Positions 1-10,256 of a DNA stretch of 64,000 bases are shown here, in pieces. The notes beneath the pieces were generated by a model that ran no database searches, was not told where the DNA came from, and was given only the letters and a program-made list of their open reading frames with translations. The stretch lies in contig JAICYJ010000009.1 of NCBI GenBank assembly GCA_025934255.1, positions 2,804-66,803 of the forward strand, read 5' to 3'. Source of the stretch: Thermoleophilia bacterium. Its GTDB lineage: Bacteria > Actinomycetota > Thermoleophilia > Gaiellales > JAICJC01. A program made the position numbers and the translations under genes. How positions within the stretch are numbered: the first letter of the stretch is position 1; each line of letters opens with the position of its first letter.

Positions 1-1628
1 TGCGTGAGCAGATGTTCGCCGAACACGGTCTTGTCCCTGCGGTCGAGGATCGCGTCCGGCACCCGCCCGCGCAGGCAGCGTTTCACCAGTGTCTTCCTGC
101 GCGTGTCGGGATACTTGACCTCGGCTCGCAGGCTCAGGAAGAACTCCCACAGGTCGACGTCCACGAATGGGCGGCGGACGTCCACGCCATGGATCGCCGC
201 CACCACCTCGTCGGCGGCCAGTGTCTCGGAGGAGCCGCCGAACGAGGCGGTCTGCAGGTTCACCCATCGCTGCCGCGCCGGCGTCAGCAGGTCGGGCCGC
301 GGGATCGTCGTCACCTCGCGGTTGGTGATCCAATCCGGCGGCGGGACGGCGCGCTTGACACCGCGCCAGTTGAGGAAGCTGTTGGCCATCCGTCCGGGCA
401 CCAGCGACGGCAGGAACTGCCTGGCGATGAACGGCCAGCGGGCTCCCCGGCGGCGCTGGGTGCGAACGAGCGACGCAACCGCCGAGAGCCGGCCGTGCAT
501 CAGCAGGTGCCCGGCCAGGTCCCCGCGGCTGTCGATCACGTACTCGGCCAGCTCGCCGGTCAGGAGCGAGCGATGACCTAGCCGGCGCGCCAGCGCGTAG
601 TTCTCGTCCAGCTCCGGCACGGAGACGATCGGCGTCGGGCTGTCCAGCAGGTCGCCCCAGCGCTGCACGTCGTCAAGGCCCTTGGCCTGCGGCCGGTAGG
701 TGTGCAGCGGCATGCCCAGATGCTCTGCCACCAGCGAGATCCAGCCGCTCTCGTCCACGCTGGGCAGGTCGGGAAACACGGCCGACAGGGCCGCGACCGG
801 CCTGCCGAACCGCTGCTCGTGCCCGGGAGCGGCGAACGCGGCGACGGCCGGCGAGTCGATGCCGCCCGACAGCGACACCCCGTCGTTCCCGCTCAGGCAG
901 CGCCCGACCGCCTGATCGAACAGCTCGGTGAAACGCTCCTCGGTCTCGGCGACGGTGAAGCGGCCGGTCTCCACCAGCTGCTCCGGTTCCCAGTAGCGGT
1001 CGGCGCGCCGGCGACCGCCGCGATCGTGCGACAACACGGTGGCGGCCGCCATCCGCTTGACACCCTTGACCGCGCAGTCGGCGTCGGTCGCTCCGCCCTG
1101 CCCGTAGAAGATGCGCTCCACGGCGTCCAGATCGGGCTCGCGAGGGATGCCTGCGCCCGCCAGAACCTGTTTCGCTTCGCTCGCGAGGTGCACCGCACGG
1201 CCGTCCTCGCAGTAGTACACCGCGCGAAATCCGACCTGGTCGCGGAAGCTCCAGATCCGCTCGCCGTCGGTGACGGCGGCGGCGAACTGCCCGCGCAGGC
1301 GAGCGGGGGCGCCCTCACCCCACACGCGGAACGCCTCCTCGACGATGTCGGCAGGCGTCTCGCCGGCGGCCGCTCGTCCGTGCGCCGCCAGCTGCTGGCG
1401 CAGGTCGGCGGCGTTGTCGAGCCTGCCCGAGAACGCGGCAACCAGGCCGTTTCCCGACGATATGGAGCCGTCGGCGACGTCATCCTCCTGGGACACACCG
1501 AGGGCCACCGCGCCGTGCTCCCGCACCTGCTGGGCGCCCCCGCGATGCGGTGCGGCATCCAGCATCAGGCGGACGCGATCCGGCTCAGCCGGTCCTGCCC
1601 TGCTGAGTCGTGCCGCGAGGGATCCCAT
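1..1628 (-). CDS. asparagine synthetase-related protein, lasso-cyclase-like (3' end lies beyond the left window edge)
   Basis: Absent from the ORF track because it runs off the edge. My translation of the minus strand from ATG at 1628 (in-frame TGA three codons upstream, purine-rich GAGGGAGG just upstream) gives MGSLAARLSRAGPAEPDRVRLMLDAAPHRGG... and stays open to position 1. It has the PP-loop SLSGGIDSPAVAAF and an AsnB-like C-terminal half. The N-terminus lacks the Cys2 glutaminase nucleophile. Confidence 0.8.
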   Translation of the reverse strand, partial: MGSLAARLSRAGPAEPDRVRLMLDAAPHRGGAQQVREHGAVALGVSQEDDVADGSISSGNGLVAAFSGRLDNAADLRQQLAAHGRAAAGETPADIVEEAFRVWGEGAPARLRGQFAAAVTDGERIWSFRDQVGFRAVYYCEDGRAVHLASEAKQVLAGAGIPREPDLDAVERIFYGQGGATDADCAVKGVKRMAAATVLSHDRGGRRRADRYWEPEQLVETGRFTVAETEERFTELFDQAVGRCLSGNDGVSLSGGIDSPAVAAFAAPGHEQRFGRPVAALSAVFPDLPSVDESGWISLVAEHLGMPLHTYRPQAKGLDDVQRWGDLLDSPTPIVSVPELDENYALARRLGHRSLLTGELAEYVIDSRGDLAGHLLMHGRLSAVASLVRTQRRRGARWPFIARQFLPSLVPGRMANSFLNWRGVKRAVPPPDWITNREVTTIPRPDLLTPARQRWVNLQTASFGGSSETLAADEVVAAIHGVDVRRPFVDVDLWEFFLSLRAEVKYPDTRRKTLVKRCLRGRVPDAILDRRDKTVFGEHLLT

Positions 1629-1701: not shown

Positions 1702-1729
1702 TTGACACGGCCCTGGTCGGAGGTATAGT
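1702..1729 (+). promoter_or_regulatory. sigma-70-type promoter candidate for the precursor/ABC/PqqD operon (TTGACA-N16-TATAGT)
   Basis: TTGACA at 1702-1707 and TATAGT at 1724-1729 with a 16-nt spacer, about 45 nt upstream of the GTG at 1776. A near-consensus match in a GC-rich background. Confidence 0.45.
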
Positions 1730-1775
1730 TGCCTTGGCTTCCTAGTTGTCCTTGATATGAAGAGGGGGGTACTCC

Positions 1776-1949
1776 GTGAAGTACGTAGCTCCGGTGGTGG
1801 TTGACTTCGGCTCGATCGCCGACCACACGTTCGTCCACACGAACAAGACCGGCCACACGGTCCACAAGGATCACATCGTTTGTGAGACCGACAAGTTCGG
1901 CGAGTATTCGTGCGGTAGCCACGGCGGCTCGGTAGGCTCGAGCGGCTAA
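1776..1949 (+). CDS. RiPP precursor peptide candidate (lasso-type leader), 57 aa
   Basis: Below the ORF-track size cutoff. GTG start 6 nt after AGAGGGGGG. Translation: MKYVAPVVVDFGSIADHTFVHTNKTGHTVHKDHIVCETDKFGEYSCGSHGGSVGSSG. Residues 3-19 fit YxxPx(L/V)x3Gx5Tx with exact spacing. It sits between the Asn-synthetase-like gene and the ABC/PqqD genes. Confidence 0.6.
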   Translation: MKYVAPVVVDFGSIADHTFVHTNKTGHTVHKDHIVCETDKFGEYSCGSHGGSVGSSG

Positions 1950-1973: not shown

Positions 1974-2960
1974 TTGACGGGCAGTTCATCCGGGGGCGCA
2001 AACCCCCTGAGCGCTGTCCTGGATGCTCGTGACGTTACCCGGTCGTTCGGTGATAAGCAGGTTCTGTCCGGCGTCGACCTTCGGGTCGGCGCCGGACGTA
2101 TCTCTGCGCTGCTTGGCCCCAACGGCGCCGGCAAGACCACGTTCCTGCGGATCCTGACGGGGCTGCTGCTGGCAGAGGGCGGCCACGTGTCGGTGGCCGG
2201 CATCGACGTGGGCCAGGACCCGATGGCCGCTCGTCGCCACATCGGGTTCTTCCCGTCGGCCGACCGCACCTTCTACAACCGCCTCAGCGGCCTCGAGAAC
2301 CTGGCCTTCTTCGGGCGCATGTACGGCATACGCCGTCAGGAGGCGCTGGCGCGTGCCCGCAAGCGCCTGGTCGACGTGGGGCTCAGCGACGCCGTCGACC
2401 AGCGCGTGGGGCTATACAGTCACGGCATGCAGAAGCGACTCTCGATGGCCCGCGCCCTGTTGATGGATCCACCGGTGCTGGTGATCGACGAGGCCACGGA
2501 CGGGCTCGACCCCGAGGGCGCCCGCCGGGTACAGGACCTGACCCGCTCGATCGCAGCCGACGGCACCGCCGTGATCTGGACCACCCAGAGGCTGGACGAG
2601 ATCCGCGGGTTCGCCGACGCGGTCACCGTGCTCGACCAGGGTCGCACCACCTTCCAGGGTACCGTCGAGGATCTGATGCTGAAGTCGAGCGCGCGCGGGT
2701 ACCTGCTGCGGCTGCGCACAGCCGACGCGACACTGGACGACGACGCGTCGAGGCGGGCCGCGGCGGCGCTGGGCGATCGCGGAAAGCTGGCGCGGGTGGG
2801 CACCGACCGCGAGCACTTCCGGCTCGACCTGGAGGAGCACGCGGTGCTGGGCGAGGTGCTGGCAGATCTCTCGGCCACCGGTGTCGTCGTGCTCGACTGC
2901 GCCCAGCAGCGCTCAGAGCTGGAGGAGTCGTTCCTGCGGCTGACGACGGCCAGGACGTGA
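1974..2960 (+). CDS. ABC transporter ATP-binding protein
   Basis: Walker A GPNGAGKTT, signature-like SHGMQKRLS, Walker B LVIDEATDGLD. TTG start as in the ORF track (the exact start is uncertain). Confidence 0.9.
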   Translation: MTGSSSGGANPLSAVLDARDVTRSFGDKQVLSGVDLRVGAGRISALLGPNGAGKTTFLRILTGLLLAEGGHVSVAGIDVGQDPMAARRHIGFFPSADRTFYNRLSGLENLAFFGRMYGIRRQEALARARKRLVDVGLSDAVDQRVGLYSHGMQKRLSMARALLMDPPVLVIDEATDGLDPEGARRVQDLTRSIAADGTAVIWTTQRLDEIRGFADAVTVLDQGRTTFQGTVEDLMLKSSARGYLLRLRTADATLDDDASRRAAAALGDRGKLARVGTDREHFRLDLEEHAVLGEVLADLSATGVVVLDCAQQRSELEESFLRLTTART

Positions 2961-3787
2961 CCGGCACGAGATCGGGCGCGCTGGCCGAGGCGTTGAAGCT
3001 CGGGGCGTTCTTCCGACGCGATCTGCTGGTGCGGCTGAGCTACCGCGGAGCCATCGTCAGCGACTGGATCAACCTGTTCGCCCAGGCCCTGGTGTTCTCG
3101 TTCGTGTCCAAGCTGGTGCATCCGATCCACATCAACGGCGGCGGTCGCACCTCCTATATCGCCTTCGTCACCGTCGGGATCGCGGTGGCGGGCTTCATGG
3201 CCGTCGGGCTGGCGCGGCTGGTCAGCGCCATCCAGCAGGAGCAGTCGCTGGGAACGCTGGAGTCGCTGATGGTCACCCCCACCACCGCCAGCGTGGTGCT
3301 GCTTGGCTCGGTCATCTACGACCTGATCTACGTCCCGTTCCGCACGGTCATTTTCCTGATCATCGTGTCGATCGTGTTCAACGTCAGCTTCGCGGCCAGC
3401 GGGTACATCCCCGCGCTGCTGATCCTGGCTGCGTTCATCCCGTTCGTGTGGGGGCTCGGATCGATCGCGTCGGCCGGCGTGCTCACCTTCCGGCGCGGCT
3501 CGGGAGCGATCGGGTTCCTGGCCTTCGCGCTGACGTTCACGTCGGGCGCGTACTTCCCGCTGGCGCTGTTCCCGTCGTGGGTCGCCCCACTGGCCAGCAT
3601 CAATCCGATCGGGATCGCGATCACCGGCATGCGAGCGCAGCTGATCGGCGGCGCGGGGTGGCACGATGCGCTGGTCACCATCGCCAAGCTGGTGCCGTTG
3701 TCGGGGATCACGCTGCTGCTGGGGCTGTACGCCTTCCGGCTGGCGATGCGCCGCGAGCGGCGACTCGGTACGCTCGGCCTGTACTGA
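2957..3787 (+). CDS. ABC-2 type transporter permease
   Basis: 276-aa polytopic hydrophobic protein. GTGA start/stop overlap with the ATPase gene. Confidence 0.85.
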   Translation: MTGTRSGALAEALKLGAFFRRDLLVRLSYRGAIVSDWINLFAQALVFSFVSKLVHPIHINGGGRTSYIAFVTVGIAVAGFMAVGLARLVSAIQQEQSLGTLESLMVTPTTASVVLLGSVIYDLIYVPFRTVIFLIIVSIVFNVSFAASGYIPALLILAAFIPFVWGLGSIASAGVLTFRRGSGAIGFLAFALTFTSGAYFPLALFPSWVAPLASINPIGIAITGMRAQLIGGAGWHDALVTIAKLVPLSGITLLLGLYAFRLAMRRERRLGTLGLY

Positions 3788-3804
3788 CAAGGAGCGACTA
3801 ACGC

Positions 3805-4089
3805 ATGATCGACCCGACCACTCGAATCAGCCGCAACCCGGACGTCGTCTTCCGCTCGCTGGAGGAGGAGCAGGGCGGCGTGCTCCTGCACCTGCAGTCG
3901 GGCGCCTATCACGGGCTGAACCAGTTCGGCTCGCTGATCTGGGGGCTGCTCGAGAACGAGACGCGGTTTGCCGACCTGGTTAACGGCGTGCGGGCCGAGA
4001 CGGAGGATGCGCCGGCCTCGCTCGACGAGGACGTGTCCGGCTTCGTCGAGGACCTGAGCGCGCGCGACCTCGTGCAGCTGACGCCCTAG
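3805..4089 (+). CDS. PqqD family protein (RiPP recognition element, lasso B1-like)
   Basis: 94 aa. The pattern RNPDVVFRSLEEEQGGVLLHLQSGAYHGLNQFGSLIW is typical of PqqD/RRE proteins. AAGGAG RBS upstream. Confidence 0.85.
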   Translation: MIDPTTRISRNPDVVFRSLEEEQGGVLLHLQSGAYHGLNQFGSLIWGLLENETRFADLVNGVRAETEDAPASLDEDVSGFVEDLSARDLVQLTP

Positions 4090-4102
4090 CGTCCCCCGGT
4101 GT

Positions 4103-5632
4103 TCACGAGCTGGGCCGTGTGCGTCCCGATGCACGTCCGATCCGGGCGAACCGGCCGAGTATCAGGTTGTCCTCTTCGTCGAACGACGAGGTGGCCAGCA
4201 GGGCCGTCGCGTAGGCGAGGGTTGCGCCGGCCGCGCCGCCGATGATTGCGAGCGCAGCCGGCTCGGAGTCCAACAGCACGCGCAGTCCGGCCGCGGTCAG
4301 CACGAACACGGTCAGTGCCAGCCCCACCGGCCGCGACCAGTCGCCGAACGGCTGCATGCCGAGCACGCGGTACACCTGCCACAGCCGGATCAGGTTCCAG
4401 ATCACGATCGATATCCCCCAGGCCAGGCCGGCGCCGACCATGCCGTAGGGCGGGATCAGCGCTACGTTCAGAACCACGTTCAGCACCAGCGCGATCACGC
4501 TGTTCTTGAGCACCAGGTCGGCGCGCCCGATCATCGTCACCACGTGGCCGCAGGGGCCGGTCGCGGCGTTCACCGTCTGCCCGATCGCGAGCAGCGCCAG
4601 CGGCCACGCGCCGCGAGCGTAGCTGGGTCCGTACAGGAGCGTCACGATCGGCAGCGCGAACAACGTCAGGAACAGGAGCGGCGGGCAGCCGGCGATGGTC
4701 GACCACTTGGTGGCGAACCGGTACATGCGGTACAGCCCGGCGTGGTCGGAGAGTGCGTACAGCCGCCCGATCTGGGGCTGGAACGCGATCCCGATCGGCA
4801 GGATGAACATCATTCCGAACAGGACGGTGCGGGTCGCGATCGAGTAGACCGCGACATCGGCGGGCGGGCGCCACAGCCCCAGCAGCAGTGTGTCCGCCCA
4901 CAGCAGCCCCACGCCGGCCAGCGATGCGCCCCACTGGTTGGCGCTGAACCGGATCAGCGCGCCGGTCTCGACGCCGGCGGCCTGCCGCAGCGTGCCGGTC
5001 ACCCCGCGCGCCGCCAGGGCGGCCGCGGCAAGCGTCAGATAGGACGCGATCGTGAACGCCACCGCCGTGCCATCGAGGCCGTAGCCGAGCGCCAGCGCGA
5101 AGGCCACCAGCGCCACTCGCAGCACGCCGTCGGTGACCTGGTCGACCACTACGAACGCCTTCATGCGGCCGGTGCCGCGGGTGGCGCCGATCAGCACCAT
5201 CTGCAGCGTCACCGCCGGCAGTGACAGCACCATCACCCGCAGCACGTACTGCAGGTCGTGTGCGCCGAACAGGTCGGACAGCTGCGGCGCCAGCGCGAAC
5301 ACCAGCGCCGCGATCGCGATCGACGCCCCCCCGGCCAGCAGCACCGACAGCGCCACCGCCGCGCGCGCGCGGTCATGCTCCCCCCGCGCGCGGTGCACCG
5401 CCACGTAGCGGATCGCGGTCACGTCGAGGCCGAGCACGGCCAGCACCGACAGCAGCCGCACGGCCGCGAACCCTTCGAAGAAGACGCCGGCCGCATCCTG
5501 GTTCAGGGAGCGGCCGATCATCAGCACCAGGGCGAACTGCATGGCGTTGGCCGCGGCCAGTCCCACGAAGTTCATTGCCGATCGCTGGACGAGCGTGGTT
5601 GTCTCAGGCTTGGCTGCGTCGTCCACGGTCAT
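4103..5632 (-). CDS. MOP-superfamily flippase (polysaccharide biosynthesis protein / Wzx-like)
   Basis: 509-aa polytopic membrane protein with Wzx/MOP-like N-terminal region (SAMNFVGLAAANAMQFALVLMIGRSL...). Confidence 0.8.
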   Translation of the reverse strand: MTVDDAAKPETTTLVQRSAMNFVGLAAANAMQFALVLMIGRSLNQDAAGVFFEGFAAVRLLSVLAVLGLDVTAIRYVAVHRARGEHDRARAAVALSVLLAGGASIAIAALVFALAPQLSDLFGAHDLQYVLRVMVLSLPAVTLQMVLIGATRGTGRMKAFVVVDQVTDGVLRVALVAFALALGYGLDGTAVAFTIASYLTLAAAALAARGVTGTLRQAAGVETGALIRFSANQWGASLAGVGLLWADTLLLGLWRPPADVAVYSIATRTVLFGMMFILPIGIAFQPQIGRLYALSDHAGLYRMYRFATKWSTIAGCPPLLFLTLFALPIVTLLYGPSYARGAWPLALLAIGQTVNAATGPCGHVVTMIGRADLVLKNSVIALVLNVVLNVALIPPYGMVGAGLAWGISIVIWNLIRLWQVYRVLGMQPFGDWSRPVGLALTVFVLTAAGLRVLLDSEPAALAIIGGAAGATLAYATALLATSSFDEEDNLILGRFARIGRASGRTRPSS

Positions 5633-5692
5633 CTGCGCTTCCAGTCTACGTGCGCCCCCCTGTGAGCGCGACGCCGGTGACTGCCGGGGCGT

Positions 5693-6583
5693 CTACGTCA
5701 GCGGCACCTGTTCGAGCCGGGCGGCCAGGTCGTCGCAGCGACGCCGGATCTCGGGGTCGATCTCGAGCGGCCGCCGCTCGGGCGCTTCACGACGCTCGAT
5801 GTGCGCGGCCAGCGAGGCGTCGAACGGGAAGTCGAGAAACGCGCAGAGCGCGCGCATGTTCCGGTCAGGGTCGGCCAGGAACCGGTCATAGCAGGCCAGC
5901 GTGACGTCGTCGCGCTGGTCGAGCCCGCGCTCGAAGTAGAGCGAGTTGCGCACGTACCAGAACAGGGCGGCGGCCGACTCGGGCGTCATCGTCGAGTAGT
6001 CGAAGCTCTCGACCAGCGCCCGGTTCTCGGCCGTCATGCCGCGCGCCTGCCAGCGGTGGTCGCCGCGGCCGGCCGCGATCTCGGTCAGCACGTCGAGGTT
6101 GTTGGTGCCGAACTTGGCCAGCGCCGAGCGCACCCGGCCGTCGACGTCGCGGTACGCCCAGATCGCGCGGCCCGGGCTGGGGGTGCCGAGCCCGTCCAGG
6201 ATCTCGTCCACCCGGTGTGAGTCGCAGAGCGGCTTGAACAGCACGTAGCGGTGGCCCGAGCGCATCACCAGGTCTCGCACCACCGGATCGGGCCGCAGCT
6301 GGAACCGCTCAAAGGCGTCGCCGTCGTTCTCGTTTCGCACCTCGAACTCGGGCGATCGCTCCAGCCCGCGCACCAGCATGTTGGTGCCCGAGCGCTGCAC
6401 GCCCACCAGATAGACCGGGACCGCGGCGGGGGCGACCGAGTGGGTGCGCCGCCACCGGCGCTTGCGCAGCGCCAGCGGCACGCGCTCCAGCGGGTTCAGC
6501 TGATCCTCCTCGATCAGCCGCCGGAATCCGTGCGCGCGGCCCCACTCCCAGTGGCGTCGCACGCGGATCCCGATCCAGCGCAT
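5693..6583 (-). CDS. PAPS-dependent sulfotransferase family protein
   Basis: 5'-PSB-like loop LVGVQRSGTNMLVRGL and 3'-PB-like AYRDVDGRVRSAL. I prefer the internal ATG at 6583 (MRWIGIRV...); the ORF track extends to 6670. Confidence 0.8.
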   Translation of the reverse strand: MRWIGIRVRRHWEWGRAHGFRRLIEEDQLNPLERVPLALRKRRWRRTHSVAPAAVPVYLVGVQRSGTNMLVRGLERSPEFEVRNENDGDAFERFQLRPDPVVRDLVMRSGHRYVLFKPLCDSHRVDEILDGLGTPSPGRAIWAYRDVDGRVRSALAKFGTNNLDVLTEIAAGRGDHRWQARGMTAENRALVESFDYSTMTPESAAALFWYVRNSLYFERGLDQRDDVTLACYDRFLADPDRNMRALCAFLDFPFDASLAAHIERREAPERRPLEIDPEIRRRCDDLAARLEQVPLT

Positions 6584-6822
6584 GCGCGACTCTCGTCCGC
6601 TCTCGGTCTGCACGATCCGCAGTGTTGCAGAAGGGGTGCGTCGCCGGATGCGACAACGCGGCGCTCGCACCTCTTAGCACGCTGTAAATAATCAGTAAGA
6701 CTAGCGTCCAGCTAGTAACGCAAGTAGTCGGGATTGCCGATACAGCCCTCGTATCAGGGGTGCATGCGCGGGGTGGGGCGGCGCGCCGCACACGCAGCCA
6801 CAACACCACTCGGGGGGATTCG

Positions 6823-8028
6823 TTGAAACGGTTACTTGCGGCCGCCGTGGCTGCGATCGCGACGACGCTCATGGTCACGAACGCAAGCGGCACGAGCTCG
6901 ATGAGCATGGCAAGCGTGGGATTTGCCAGCAGTGAGAACGGCATCCATCTATGGGCTCCGATGCACACGGCTCCGCAGAGGTTCACGACGCAGGCGGCTG
7001 CAGTGGACGCCGCCAAGCGTTTCGACTTGATCACGTTCAATCCAGCTCAGCTGGGCGGCTATGCCTCGGCGATGAAGGCTGCCAATCCCAATCTCAAGCT
7101 GTACGTCTATCTGAACGGCACCTTCCTCTACAAGCGGCTCTACGGCACGGTCGACCCGTCGATGCTCTCGCACGACGCGCAGGGCCGTGTCGTGCAGTCG
7201 CACGGGTACGGCAACTACCTGGCCGATCCGGGCGACCCCAACTGGGTCTCCTACGTGCAGCAGTCGTGCGCGAAGCTGCTGTCCGGAACCGTCTACGACG
7301 GCTGTTACCTGGACATGCTGGGCACGGCGCCGCTGTGGCCCGGCTACGCCACCGGGCTGCCCATCAACCCGGCCACCGGCCAGGTCTGGACGCGTCTTGA
7401 CTGGCTGGATGCGACCAGCGCGCTGGCCGCCAGGGTGGCGTCGTTCACCGGCAAGTCCGTGCTCGGCAACGGCCTTGGCAACGGGACCCGGTACTTCGCA
7501 CCGGGCGCGCCCAGCAAGCTGCTGCTGAGCGGTGCGACCGGGGTCAGCGCCGAGGCCTGGACGCGGCAGGCGGGTGCTCCGCTGGCCCGCTTCGAGCCGA
7601 CCAAGGCCTGGGTGCAGGACGTGGACATGCTGAGCGATGCGAGTTCCACGGGCGGTCTGGCGCTGACCATCACCAAGACCTGGACGGCCGGCACTGCCGA
7701 TCAGAAGGAGGACGCCCGCAGGTTCGCGCTGGCCAGCTTCCTGCTCGGCAACGACGGCAACTCGTACTTCTACTTCACGGCCAACAGGACCGATCCGGCC
7801 ACGCTGGACGATCCGCTGTACCACCTGCAGATCGGCACGCCGACCGGTCCCTACGTGGTGCAGAGCGGCGTCTACGTGCGCAACTTCACCAACGGGAAGG
7901 TCATGGTCAACACGACCGATTCGCCGGTCTCGATCGATCTGGGCGGTGCCTACCGCCGCTCGGATGGGAGCTTCGCGCTGGGTGCCACGCTGCCCGCGCA
8001 CGGCTCTCAGATCTTCACCACCAGCTGA
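6823..8028 (+). CDS. secreted protein, putative glycoside hydrolase-like (function is low confidence)
   Basis: TTG at 6823 follows GGGGGGA. The signal-peptide-like N-terminus is LKRLLAAAVAAIATTLMVTNASG. The body (..DGCYLDMLG..) reminds me of GHL-type TIM-barrel hydrolases, but this is unverified. Confidence 0.5.
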   Translation: MKRLLAAAVAAIATTLMVTNASGTSSMSMASVGFASSENGIHLWAPMHTAPQRFTTQAAAVDAAKRFDLITFNPAQLGGYASAMKAANPNLKLYVYLNGTFLYKRLYGTVDPSMLSHDAQGRVVQSHGYGNYLADPGDPNWVSYVQQSCAKLLSGTVYDGCYLDMLGTAPLWPGYATGLPINPATGQVWTRLDWLDATSALAARVASFTGKSVLGNGLGNGTRYFAPGAPSKLLLSGATGVSAEAWTRQAGAPLARFEPTKAWVQDVDMLSDASSTGGLALTITKTWTAGTADQKEDARRFALASFLLGNDGNSYFYFTANRTDPATLDDPLYHLQIGTPTGPYVVQSGVYVRNFTNGKVMVNTTDSPVSIDLGGAYRRSDGSFALGATLPAHGSQIFTTS

Positions 8029-8046
8029 TCGGCGTCCCCGGTTCAC

Positions 8047-8075
8047 GGCCCCGGCGGGGACTTCTCGCCGGGGCC
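8047..8075 (+). terminator. GC-rich hairpin (perfect 10-bp stem GGCCCCGGCG/CGCCGGGGCC, 9-nt loop), no T tract
   Basis: Read directly from the sequence, 19 nt after the stop at 8028. Confidence 0.35.
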
Positions 8076-8099
8076 GCGGGCTGGTACCCTCTTCGCGGG

Positions 8100-10256
8100 T
8101 TGACTACGCGCGCCGCCAGGTGGATCGCGCTGCTCCTAGCCGTGACGTTCGCCTTGTCGGCCTCGGCGGCTCGCGCTGCAACGCTCGTGTTCAGCCCGGC
8201 CGGCCCCGGCGGCGGAGGCTTCCAGAACGTGGTGGCGGCCGATCCGGCCAACCCCAGCGTGCTGCTCTCCGGTGGCGACGTGTCGGGGATCGAGCGCTCG
8301 ACCGACGGCGGCGCCAGCTGGCAGGCGGTCAACGCCGGCCTGGTGGGCCGTGCCCAGCTCGAGGTGGCTGCGTTCCTGTTCTCGCCGGTGGTGGCCGGGC
8401 GCGTGTACGCGGCGGTGGGCGACGCCGGCACCGGCGGCGGCCTGCTCGAGTCCGATGACTCCGGCGCCACCTGGAGGATGGTGTCGAGGGTGCCCCAGTT
8501 CGCCGGCGGCAACGCCAAGACGGCCGGGCTGCCCGCCGAGCACCCGCGATCGACCGGGAACCTGCTGGTCCAGGATCCGGTCAGCGGCTCGATCTACGCG
8601 GCCACCTTCAGCCAGGGTGTGATGCGCTCCGACGACGGCGGTGCGACCTGGACGACGCTCGGCCTGAGCGGCCTCCACCTGCGCTCGCTGGCGCTCGATC
8701 CGACCGCGACCAGCGTGCTCTACGCGGGCAGCTACGGGCAGGGTCTCTACGAGACCACCGATGCCGGCGGCCTGGGCGGGTTCACGCGGCTGGCAACGGC
8801 GCCGGCCACGGTCGAGGAGCTGAGCATCGCGGGCGGCACCATCTACGCGGCCGCCGGCACCAGCGGCGTGTTCGCCTCCGGCGACGGCGGCGCAACCTGG
8901 TCGCAGCTGGGCGCCGGCCAGCTGCGGGCCGGCTCCATGTGGACGTCGATCGCGGCGTGGACCGGCTGCGACGGCGCCACCCAGGTCTACGCGGGCGCGG
9001 ATCAGTCGTCACCGGACGCGATCGTCCGCTCGGGCGACGGCGGCGCCACCTGGCATTCGGTCACGGGCGATCCGACCAGAATCCATCCCGATGTCGGCGG
9101 CCCCGGCGGGGCGCCGTGGTGGCTGGCGACCCGGCCCGGCTTCATGCTGGGCGGAAAGAGCTCCACCCCCGCCCAGATCGGGCTTGCGATCGACGCCACG
9201 CAGCCCTGTGCCGATCCGGCGGTGCTCGTGGCCGGTCGCTCCGGCATCTGGAAGTCGGGCAACGACGGCGGCGACTGGTACCCGATGGTCGGCCACATGG
9301 GGGTGACGCTGATCCAGGACCTGGCCGTCGATCCGCACGCTCCGGCCACCGTCGACATGGTCGCGACCGACTGGACGTTCCTGACCTCGAGCGACACCGG
9401 CGCCAGCGTCACCTCGCCGGTGATCAAGCTGGCCGCCTCCACGGGGTTCGACGTCGCCATCGATCCGACGGTCACGCCCTCACGCGTGTACATCGCCACC
9501 GGTAACCGCGACGGAAACAGGCAGGGCAAGATCTACTCGTCATCCACCCCGGCGATCTCCAGTTCGTGGACGGATGAGGGGCTCTCGGCGCTGGCCGGTG
9601 TCAAGCGGCCGCTGGCGATCGCCGTCGGAAAGTCGGGTACCAGCAGGGTGCTGCTGGCCGCCGTCGACGCGGGCGGTATCTATCGCAAGGTCGGCACCGG
9701 CAAGTGGACGAGGGCCGCCGCGGCGGCGATGACGACCAAGAACTGGGCGAAGCCGATCCAGATGGTGTGGCCGGCCGGCACCTCGATCGTCTACCTGTAC
9801 GACCACCGCAGCGGCATCTGGCGGTCGACCGACGCCGGCGCCACCTGGACGAAGCTGTGGGCGAAGCCGTCGTCGGGCGATCTCAAGGGCTTCATCGCCA
9901 CCGACGCCACCGGCACCACGCTGTGGGTCTCCAACGGCACCGCGCTCTACCGGATCGACAACGCCAGCAAGGTCGCGGCCGCGGGGCTGGCGCCGGTGAC
10001 GGTGCTGACCGTGCCGCAGCCGGGGCCGGTGGTGGTCGCACCCGGCGGCAGCGTCTACCTGGCCGTACAGCCGACCGCGACCGCGCCGGCTCAGCTGCTC
10101 CGCTCCGATGACAAGGGCGCCACCTGGGCGGACGTGGCTGACGCCATCTACCGGGCCACGGCGCTTCTGCCCTACCGGCTGGTGGTCGACGGCTCGGGCG
10201 CCGTCTGGGTCTGCCTGGCCGGCAACGGCGTGCTGCGCGGTGTGCCCGCGCCGTAG
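8100..10256 (+). CDS. secreted BNR/Asp-box repeat beta-propeller protein
   Basis: Signal peptide (ALSASAARA). Eight SxDxGxTW-type Asp-boxes: STDGGASW, SDDSGATW, SDDGGATW, SGDGGATW (twice), NDGGDW, STDAGATW, SDDKGATW. Confidence 0.8.
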   Translation: MTTRAARWIALLLAVTFALSASAARAATLVFSPAGPGGGGFQNVVAADPANPSVLLSGGDVSGIERSTDGGASWQAVNAGLVGRAQLEVAAFLFSPVVAGRVYAAVGDAGTGGGLLESDDSGATWRMVSRVPQFAGGNAKTAGLPAEHPRSTGNLLVQDPVSGSIYAATFSQGVMRSDDGGATWTTLGLSGLHLRSLALDPTATSVLYAGSYGQGLYETTDAGGLGGFTRLATAPATVEELSIAGGTIYAAAGTSGVFASGDGGATWSQLGAGQLRAGSMWTSIAAWTGCDGATQVYAGADQSSPDAIVRSGDGGATWHSVTGDPTRIHPDVGGPGGAPWWLATRPGFMLGGKSSTPAQIGLAIDATQPCADPAVLVAGRSGIWKSGNDGGDWYPMVGHMGVTLIQDLAVDPHAPATVDMVATDWTFLTSSDTGASVTSPVIKLAASTGFDVAIDPTVTPSRVYIATGNRDGNRQGKIYSSSTPAISSSWTDEGLSALAGVKRPLAIAVGKSGTSRVLLAAVDAGGIYRKVGTGKWTRAAAAAMTTKNWAKPIQMVWPAGTSIVYLYDHRSGIWRSTDAGATWTKLWAKPSSGDLKGFIATDATGTTLWVSNGTALYRIDNASKVAAAGLAPVTVLTVPQPGPVVVAPGGSVYLAVQPTATAPAQLLRSDDKGATWADVADAIYRATALLPYRLVVDGSGAVWVCLAGNGVLRGVPAP

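Follow-up and report, generated by a model that had tools for sequence, protein, structure and literature searches.

A conserved lasso-type precursor peptide from an uncultured soil actinobacterium that lacks an acidic residue at the canonical ring positions

A 57-codon gene located among lasso-peptide biosynthesis genes of a Gaiellales actinobacterium was found to be a real, conserved precursor peptide gene, and the encoded peptide cannot form, in the register set by its leader, the 7–9-residue ring that defines every known lasso peptide. It belongs to a large unstudied family of at least 129 clusters at 50% identity and 80 genome loci, all of them metagenome-assembled genomes (MAGs), in which Asp or Glu at core positions 7–9 occurs in 21 of 105 representatives, i.e., no more often than expected by chance (24%). 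The product is tentatively interpreted as a non-canonical macrolactam, in which the residue following the predicted cleavage site, Val20, would be joined to the family-invariant Asp39, although the ring itself remains inferred.

The initial annotation had pointed to this open reading frame as a lasso precursor candidate with a canonical leader motif but no acceptor for a ring of known size, and this observation proved to be right in every detail. The sequence (GTG AAG TAC ... GGC TAA) translates to (M/V)KYVAPVVVDFGSIADHTFVHTNKTGHTVHKDHIVCETDKFGEYSCGSHGGSVGSSG*; Y3, P6, V8, G12, T18 and F19 are at the positions given there, core positions 7–9 counted after F19 are G, H and T, the first acidic residue is D32 (core position 13), the Cys residues are C36 and C46, the Ser/Gly tail is present, and the three alternative registers were described correctly. 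The absence of the gene from the list of open reading frames is probably explained by its length of 57 aa, which is below the 60-aa default of such lists; the frame appears when the minimum is lowered to 40 aa. The features of the locus are collected in Table 1, where the window means the whole 64-kb stretch of DNA that was analysed.

Table 1. Features of the precursor locus and its surroundings (positions are those of the window)
Position	Strand	Feature	Observations
1702..1729	+	Sigma-70-like promoter of the precursor gene (TTGACA, 16 nt, TATAGT); function inferred	11 of 12 consensus matches; 2 promoter-like sites in the region against 0.1 expected from shuffles
1762..1769	+	Strong ribosome-binding site GAGGGGGG, 6 nt before the GTG start	In-frame TGA at 1758–1760 rules out a longer N-terminus
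1776..1949	+	Precursor peptide gene (A), 57 aa plus stop	GC3 0.83 in this frame against 0.51–0.53 in the overlapping frames; identical peptide called as a gene on 19 public contigs
1776..1832	+	Leader, residues 1–19 (MKYVAPVVVDFGSIADHTF); Y3, P6 and V8 form the motif bound by B1 (inferred from family knowledge), T18-F19 are positions -2 and -1	Near-invariant across the whole family
1821..1844	+	Imperfect 12-nt tandem repeat GACCACACGTTC / GTCCACACGAAC (DHTF / VHTN)	9 of 12 identical; observed post hoc
1833..1865	+	Variable segment of the core, residues 20–30 (VHTNKTGHTVH)	Length varies widely across the family
1866..1913	+	Conserved block K31-D32-H-I-V-C36-E-T-D39-K-F-G-E43-Y-S45-C46	Holds the candidate ring acceptors D32 and D39 and the C36/C46 pair
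1914..1946	+	Gly/Ser tail GSHGGSVGSSG; candidate tailoring region	Conserved to S52, variable after that
3..1628	-	Asparagine-synthetase-like macrolactam cyclase (C)	N-terminal 542 of 598 aa, the rest cut by the window edge; Asn_synthase 1.2e-26; lasso cyclase model 2.9e-34, below its cutoff; SGGIDS ATP motif present, no N-terminal catalytic Cys
1974..2960	+	ABC transporter ATP-binding subunit (exporter D1)	Found in 74 of 80 family loci
2957..3787	+	ABC-2 permease (exporter D2)	Found in 70 of 80 loci
3805..4089	+	PqqD-like RiPP recognition element (B1)	PqqD 1.9e-13; lasso PqqD models about 3e-9; found in 72 of 80 loci
4103..8028	.	Neighbouring polysaccharide-type genes: Wzx/MATE-like flippase (4103–5632, -), sulfotransferase-like (5693–6670, -) and GHL15 (6760–8028, +); possible accessory genes, not part of the core set	Present only in the 12–14 closest Gaiellales loci

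The possibility that the frame is not a gene was rejected. In addition to the signals listed in Table 1, the pattern [YWF]xxPx[LIVMFA]x3Gx5[TIV] occurs only once in the six-frame translation of the whole window, namely at this frame, and no second, canonical precursor is hidden in the window. Lack of protein-level conservation, which had been named beforehand as a refuting condition, was not observed: 30 homologues at 58–92% identity were found, and in comparison with 12 Gaiellales loci 116 differing codons were synonymous and 83 non-synonymous, with the frame keeping 77–92% nucleotide identity while the upstream DNA fell to 25–65%. Pfam and NCBIfam scans of the peptide itself gave no hit. No terminator was found, and the predicted RNA fold of the region after the stop codon was not significant (z = -1.3).

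The window edge cuts the cluster off, and the missing genes were supplied by a near-identical contig from a Gaiellales MAG (L005/L010), which carries the full-length cyclase (598 aa), a B2 peptidase (NF033537, 3.5e-11), an NTP transferase (NTP_transf_5, PF14907, 1.6e-28) and a 300-aa HprK-like kinase matching HprK_rel_A at 1.2e-13 and ScmC at 3.5e-6, both below the curated cutoffs. Searches of PDB sequences were not informative, since the cyclase gave one distant amidotransferase and the kinase only marginal HPr kinase hits at E = 0.46. The resulting gene set, consisting of the precursor, cyclase, split B1/B2, HprK-like kinase, NTP_transf_5 and a transporter, matches the clusters of paeninodin and pseudomycoidin, the phosphorylated lasso peptides of Bacillota (PMC8498205, PMC9266682, PMC6993621), as does the leader register Y(-17), P(-14), hydrophobic(-12), T(-2). 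At the same time, the known peptides of that type have Ala1-Asp9 or Ala1-Glu9 rings and a strictly conserved C-terminal Ser, whereas the peptide described here has no acid at core positions 7–9, ends in Gly, has a 38-residue core with a conserved K...DKFGEYSC block and two Cys residues, and comes from Actinomycetota, represented only by MAGs.

A profile search of 1.84 billion representatives gave 129 hits at E ≤ 0.001, nearly all of them small proteins of about 33–99 aa, and a scan of one genome per species gave the 80 loci, which come from Gaiellales/Gaiellaceae, other Thermoleophilia, Acidimicrobiia, Nitriliruptorales, Chloroflexota and one Steroidobacteraceae MAG. In these loci the cyclase was found in 71, the kinase in 70 and B2 in 68, with one cyclase per locus. 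The NTP transferase is commoner than the first count of 28 suggested, since divergent copies occur in many other loci. De novo clustering of the open reading frames of the 80 loci was too noisy without a gene caller and served only to choose a few frames for Pfam scanning. The precursors share a near-invariant leader (M-x-Y-E-x-P-x-[VI]-x-D-[FY]-G-S-I-A-x-H-T-F), a segment of very variable length and a conserved block, roughly K-[D/G/S]-x3-C-x2-D-[KN]-[FH]-G-E-[YC]-S-[CH]. In an alignment of 34 sequences D39 and S45 were invariant and K31 was at least 90% conserved; Lys31 and Asp39, the two residues that matter most across the family, had been missed in the initial annotation.

To examine the ring across the family, the set was reduced to 105 block-containing cores by a 70% similarity cut-off. 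The chance expectation of 24% for an acid at positions 7–9 was derived from spacer composition; the equivalent of Asp39 sits at core position 11–55, most often 16–18, and at position 20 in the window peptide. Fifteen representatives have no acidic residue at all before the block Asp; the member at locus L054 (TTPHGTTKGCTVNCHQDNFGEQS...) is an example of this type. Moreover, DNPGxGD changes to QTPGxGT in close relatives, so that Asp7 is not a conserved acceptor. Note that sequences within subfamilies are related, and these counts are therefore not independent events.

The initial annotation's interpretation was only partly supported. The assignment to lasso-type precursors and the absence of a canonical ring in the register set by Thr18 were borne out, but all three alternative registers proposed there are contradicted by homologues. 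For K24-D32, position 24 is Pro in three homologue clusters (P0019, P0022 and P0025), Pro being the one residue not seen or accepted at lasso position 1 (PMC13632552), and Thr22 is Val in seven homologues. For H30-E37, Glu37 is Ala in clusters P0003 and P0004, the former present on 59 contigs, and it is Thr, Leu or Lys in wider relatives. For G26-D32, Gly26 is Asn in P0010 and in locus L021, position -2 would be the hypervariable residue 24, and the register collapses to 5–6 residues in the nearest outgroup, L023.

Three lines of evidence place the new N-terminus after Phe19. The leader spacing matches the Tyr(-17), Pro(-14), Leu(-12), Thr(-2) described in PMC10368454; family members with the same leader have canonical cores, HTF|GKPGHRYD... 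and HTF|GQPGHRYD..., in locus L085 (two copies, beside a cyclase) and in P0129; and Pro occurs at core position 1 in 1 of 105 representatives, against 11.8% elsewhere (P = 2.7e-5), which fits the exclusion of Pro at this position. The Cys counts, in turn, indicate that the variable segment stays in the product. Total Cys after HTF is even in 103 of 105 representatives, and of 37 representatives with a Cys in the segment 36 have an even total, but only 3 are even when the C-terminal part is counted alone. Of 20 representatives with Cys44, 19 have a Cys at exactly core position 3, although Asp39 lies anywhere from position 18 to 34, so the cut N-terminus is a fixed landmark lying next to the block. 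All 41 representatives with Cys46 have a Cys 3 residues before Asp39, and C36 and C46 were invariant and always co-occurred, the disulfide between them being inferred.

A ring of canonical size starting from another N-terminus is a doubtful alternative. A cut by B2 after the duplicated H-T/V-N motif, giving a 9-residue Lys24-Asp32 ring, would be consistent with the DHTF/VHTN repeat and with the Val or Ile at -2 that occurs in phosphorylated lasso precursors (PMC10368454), but it meets the Pro at position 24 noted above, and the duplication cannot explain the spacers of up to about 45 residues in other subfamilies. A leader of 30–31 residues with a Lys31-Asp39 (9 residues) or Asp32-Asp39 (8 residues) ring would give a class III-like peptide with a ring Cys at position 6. 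The column 8 residues before Asp39 is Lys (47), Gly (26) or Ser (12) in 85 of 105 representatives, every subfamily with no earlier acid reads K-[G/S]-x6-7-[D/E], and the spacer length varies as that of a linker would. However, this conflicts with the Cys parity and the fixed Cys at core position 3, no residue is conserved at -2 before Lys31, and the distance from the B1-binding motif to the cut would vary by tens of residues.

The conserved block goes with the cyclase and not with the kinase: four loci (L071, L081, L086 and L088) keep the kinase, B2, B1, the NTP transferase and the ABC genes but have no cyclase, and their precursors lack the block. These loci could also suggest that the peptide is not cyclised at all and is a linear phosphorylated, and perhaps glycosylated, peptide like the linear polyphosphorylated peptides (LPP) of Bacillota, since HprK-like kinase and NTP-transferase peptide systems without a cyclase exist, often inside polysaccharide loci (PMC13381572), and polysaccharide genes flank the present cluster. 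This reading is very unlikely, because an intact cyclase gene lies directly beside the precursor, as in most family loci, and the peptide has the block that the precursors of the cyclase-less loci lack. LPP share the YxxPxV-type leader, a discrete recognition element, the kinase, the NTP transferase, the location in polysaccharide loci and long, variable cores, but their clusters use an SpI-type signal peptidase and have neither cyclase nor B2, while both are present here and no signal-peptidase domain appeared among the genes scanned; the rest of the leader motif also differs (LxHQxIxFETxxS in LPP against VDFGSIADHTF here).

The only acceptor available in every member is Asp39, or Glu43. In the favoured model, which we hold tentatively and at somewhat less than even confidence, B1 would bind Y3-x-x-P6-x-V8 of the leader, the B2 cysteine peptidase would cut after Thr18-Phe19, the whole 38-residue remainder V20–G57 would be the core, and the single Asn-synthetase-like cyclase, unable to make the canonical ring, would join the Val20 amine to Asp39, giving a 20-residue macrolactam. 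Cys36, in the ring and 3 residues before Asp39, would pair with Cys46, in the tail and 7 residues after it, tying ring to tail as in class I/III lasso peptides; the kinase would phosphorylate Ser45, Ser52 or a tail Ser, the NTP transferase may add a sugar, and the ABC pump would export the product. What the analysis establishes is the gene, its conservation and its gene neighbourhood, whereas the cleavage site, the ring with any threading of the tail, the disulfide and the modifications are deduced from sequence, without an experimental datum for any member of the family.

The Cys spacings around Asp39 (-3/+7 and N-terminal/+5) mirror those around Asp9 of class I peptides of the siamycin type (-2/+10 and 1/+4). 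In class I and class III peptides (siamycin type; BI-32169), a Cys a few residues before the ring Asp pairs with a tail Cys, and in the 4-Cys family members a second N-terminal Cys would likewise pair with a tail Cys close to the Asp; the known rings, however, are 9 residues long, whereas here 16 residues separate Val20 from Cys36, and this number varies widely across the family. Other considerations weigh against the model. No macrolactam larger than 9 residues is known for any lasso cyclase (PMC6993621), and none was found in the literature searched; changing ring size by one residue cuts production sharply (PMC13352647); the ring would range from 11 to 55 residues across the family; subfamilies without Cys would have nothing to lock a large ring; and the near-invariance of Lys31, with its distance to Asp39 held at 9–11 residues in 70 of 105 representatives by nearest-Lys count, is left unexplained.

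Additionally, by homology the ancestral acceptor corresponds to Asp32 and not to Asp39, and the first rival is therefore a 13-residue Val20-Asp32 macrolactam with the same gene, cluster and cleavage site, in which the Cys36-Cys46 loop would lie wholly in the tail, as in class IV lasso peptides. Asp32 aligns with the Asp9 or Asp8 that gives a canonical ring in the shortest relatives (ITPGGHTKD in L023, VTGGTPRKD, and GKPGHRYD in L085) and with the ring Asp of paeninodin (AGPGTSTPD; the mass of the paeninodin core sequence matches the m/z 1209.5 given in PMC5067487), and the x-x-P-G start of the shortest family cores resembles that of paeninodin. Asp32 is invariant in one of the alignments (A2), the only exception in the clade being the frameshift variant P0024, and the 4 extra residues relative to the 9-residue relatives may come from the 12-nt duplication. 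On the other hand, in 44 of 105 representatives there is no Asp at this place, yet the loci examined for these types keep the cyclase; the fifteen representatives without an acid before Asp39 also count against it; the ring would still range from 9 to about 26 residues; and the pairing of Cys at core position 3 with Cys44 is explained no better than by the Asp39 model. This alternative is considered unlikely.

A third possibility, very unlikely on present evidence, is that the cyclase uses the side-chain amine of Lys31 and closes it on Asp39, giving a 9-residue side-chain-to-side-chain ring with a free N-terminal arm (residues 20–30) and a C-terminal tail, i.e., a two-tailed lasso-like topology. 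It is the only model that explains together the near-invariant Lys31, the invariant Asp39 with the held Lys-Asp39 span and the unconstrained spacer length, and it is compatible with Cys parity. However, no lasso cyclase is known to use a Lys side chain, the Lys cross-link of class V peptides being made by a separate clostripain-like transpeptidase (PMC13178200), which was not found here, and the model explains neither why the spacer Cys sits at a fixed distance from the N-terminus rather than from Lys31 nor why B2 and Thr(-2) stay so conserved.

While the enzymes are of a known kind, the precursor architecture was not described in any paper that could be searched, and none of these papers contained the family motifs. 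The "unprecedented ring" of metanodin is Asn at position 1 of a normal 9-residue ring and is unrelated. The kinase-associated precursor BsfA of Bradymonas sediminis and its relatives (PMC10368454) also depart from textbook rules, with Ile or Val at -2 and phosphorylation at an internal Ser3 rather than the C-terminus, but BsfA still has a Gly1-Asp8 ring in the canonical register, whereas here Thr(-2) is kept and the ring position is lost. The ring acid is stated to sit at position 7, 8 or 9 (PMC6993621), and, as far as is known, genome-mining tools rely on the same rule, yet in this family a complete lasso enzyme set is paired with precursors that break it. It is possible, though rather less likely than not, that the lasso machinery of this family does not make a 7–9-residue ring at all and either closes the freshly cut N-terminus onto the acceptor block whatever the intervening length or uses the Lys31 side chain, with the product held together by class-I-like disulfides. 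Either outcome would be a new topological class of lasso-related peptides, widespread in uncultured soil Actinomycetota and Chloroflexota and invisible to mining rules that require an acid at core positions 7–9. If the cyclase really closes larger rings or rings of free length, this changes what the enzyme family is thought able to do and would offer a natural route to large constrained peptides; if the ring proves canonical after an unexpected cleavage, the rule that ties the cut site to the B1-binding motif would have to be revised. The recurring link to polysaccharide and glycosylation genes, also seen in Bacillota (PMC13381572), hints at a shared but unknown biological role.

As to tailoring, the presence of the kinase makes phosphorylation of Ser plausible, and related kinases act on internal Ser3 as well as on the C-terminal Ser (PMC10368454, PMC13381572). 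The suggestion of the initial annotation that the C-terminal Ser residues are tailoring sites was only partly supported: Ser is the last residue in 60 of 105 family representatives, but this peptide ends in ...GSSG, and the C-terminus varies within its own clade. The metal binding suggested there from His and Cys richness remains speculative, the His residues being conserved only within the Gaiellales clade. At the same time, Ser45 is invariant in the family alignment, and Ser52 is conserved within the clade.

Polysaccharide-type genes flank the cluster in the window, namely those for a Wzx/MATE-like flippase, a sulfotransferase-like protein, GHL15 and a BNR/sortilin-like protein, and these genes accompany the cluster only in the closest Gaiellales loci. 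At the same time, other loci of the family carry nearby genes of the types Bac_transf (19 loci), PMT protein-mannosyltransferase-like (11 loci), GT2 (15 loci) and GT4 (13 loci). This arrangement echoes the location of paeninodin-like and LPP clusters inside capsular polysaccharide loci in Bacillota (PMC13381572). An ORF of 268 aa with high GC3, which lies antisense to the ABC permease and B1 genes of the window, is most likely a spurious high-GC shadow ORF.

Coordinates of the flanking genes and of the family loci (L numbers, genome loci of the precursor family) considered in this part
Locus	Position	Strand	Feature
Window	4103-10256		Polysaccharide-type genes flanking the cluster
Window	3328-4134	-	268-aa ORF antisense to the ABC permease and B1 genes
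L071	5340-5800		Cluster without a cyclase in the DNA examined
L081	744		Cluster without a cyclase in the DNA examined
L086	10007		Cluster without a cyclase in the DNA examined
L088	10007		Cluster without a cyclase in the DNA examined
L085	606-830		Two tandem precursors with ordinary cores
L026	10007		Block-containing precursor without detectable cluster enzymes within 10 kb upstream or 7 kb downstream

In four of the family loci, L071, L081, L086 and L088, the same leader, B1, B2, kinase, NTP transferase and ABC genes were found, but no cyclase was present within the DNA examined. The precursors of these clusters, for example MPPKLEKPGNTDNFPLEWHPGQGRGSAPS and GEADRPIVGGAVPRKFSLDVDRR, lack the DKFGEYS block, and these clusters may be a B2-dependent linear counterpart of the LPP family. 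In contrast, the two tandem precursors of locus L085, which also have the family leader, possess the ordinary cores GKPGHRYDHGVFPASVP and GQPGHRYDHGIFPASA (Gly1-Asp8) and sit beside a cyclase, kinase, B2 and B1. These two precursors would make a useful canonical reference for the family.

In the homologue P0024, carried on a 29-kb ENA contig, residues 28-35 read RSTRITSY instead of QVHKDHIV at the same length, as if by a compensated double frameshift, although it is a single sequence and an assembly error is possible. This variant loses Lys31 and Asp32, but keeps the rest.

The DNPGxGDKS.../QTPGKGTKS...DKFGEYSHP subtype occurs outside Actinomycetota with the same gene set, in one Steroidobacteraceae MAG (L046) and in Chloroflexota MAGs (L032, L049, L050, L057, L069 and L076), which suggests horizontal spread, or binning errors. 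Additionally, the block-containing precursor of locus L026 (ARAQLSGACVPDPNPNQNKQGDLRICKLDKFCEYSCPS) has no detectable cluster enzyme within 10 kb upstream or 7 kb downstream, whereas the same MAG has a complete cluster of another subtype at locus L087.
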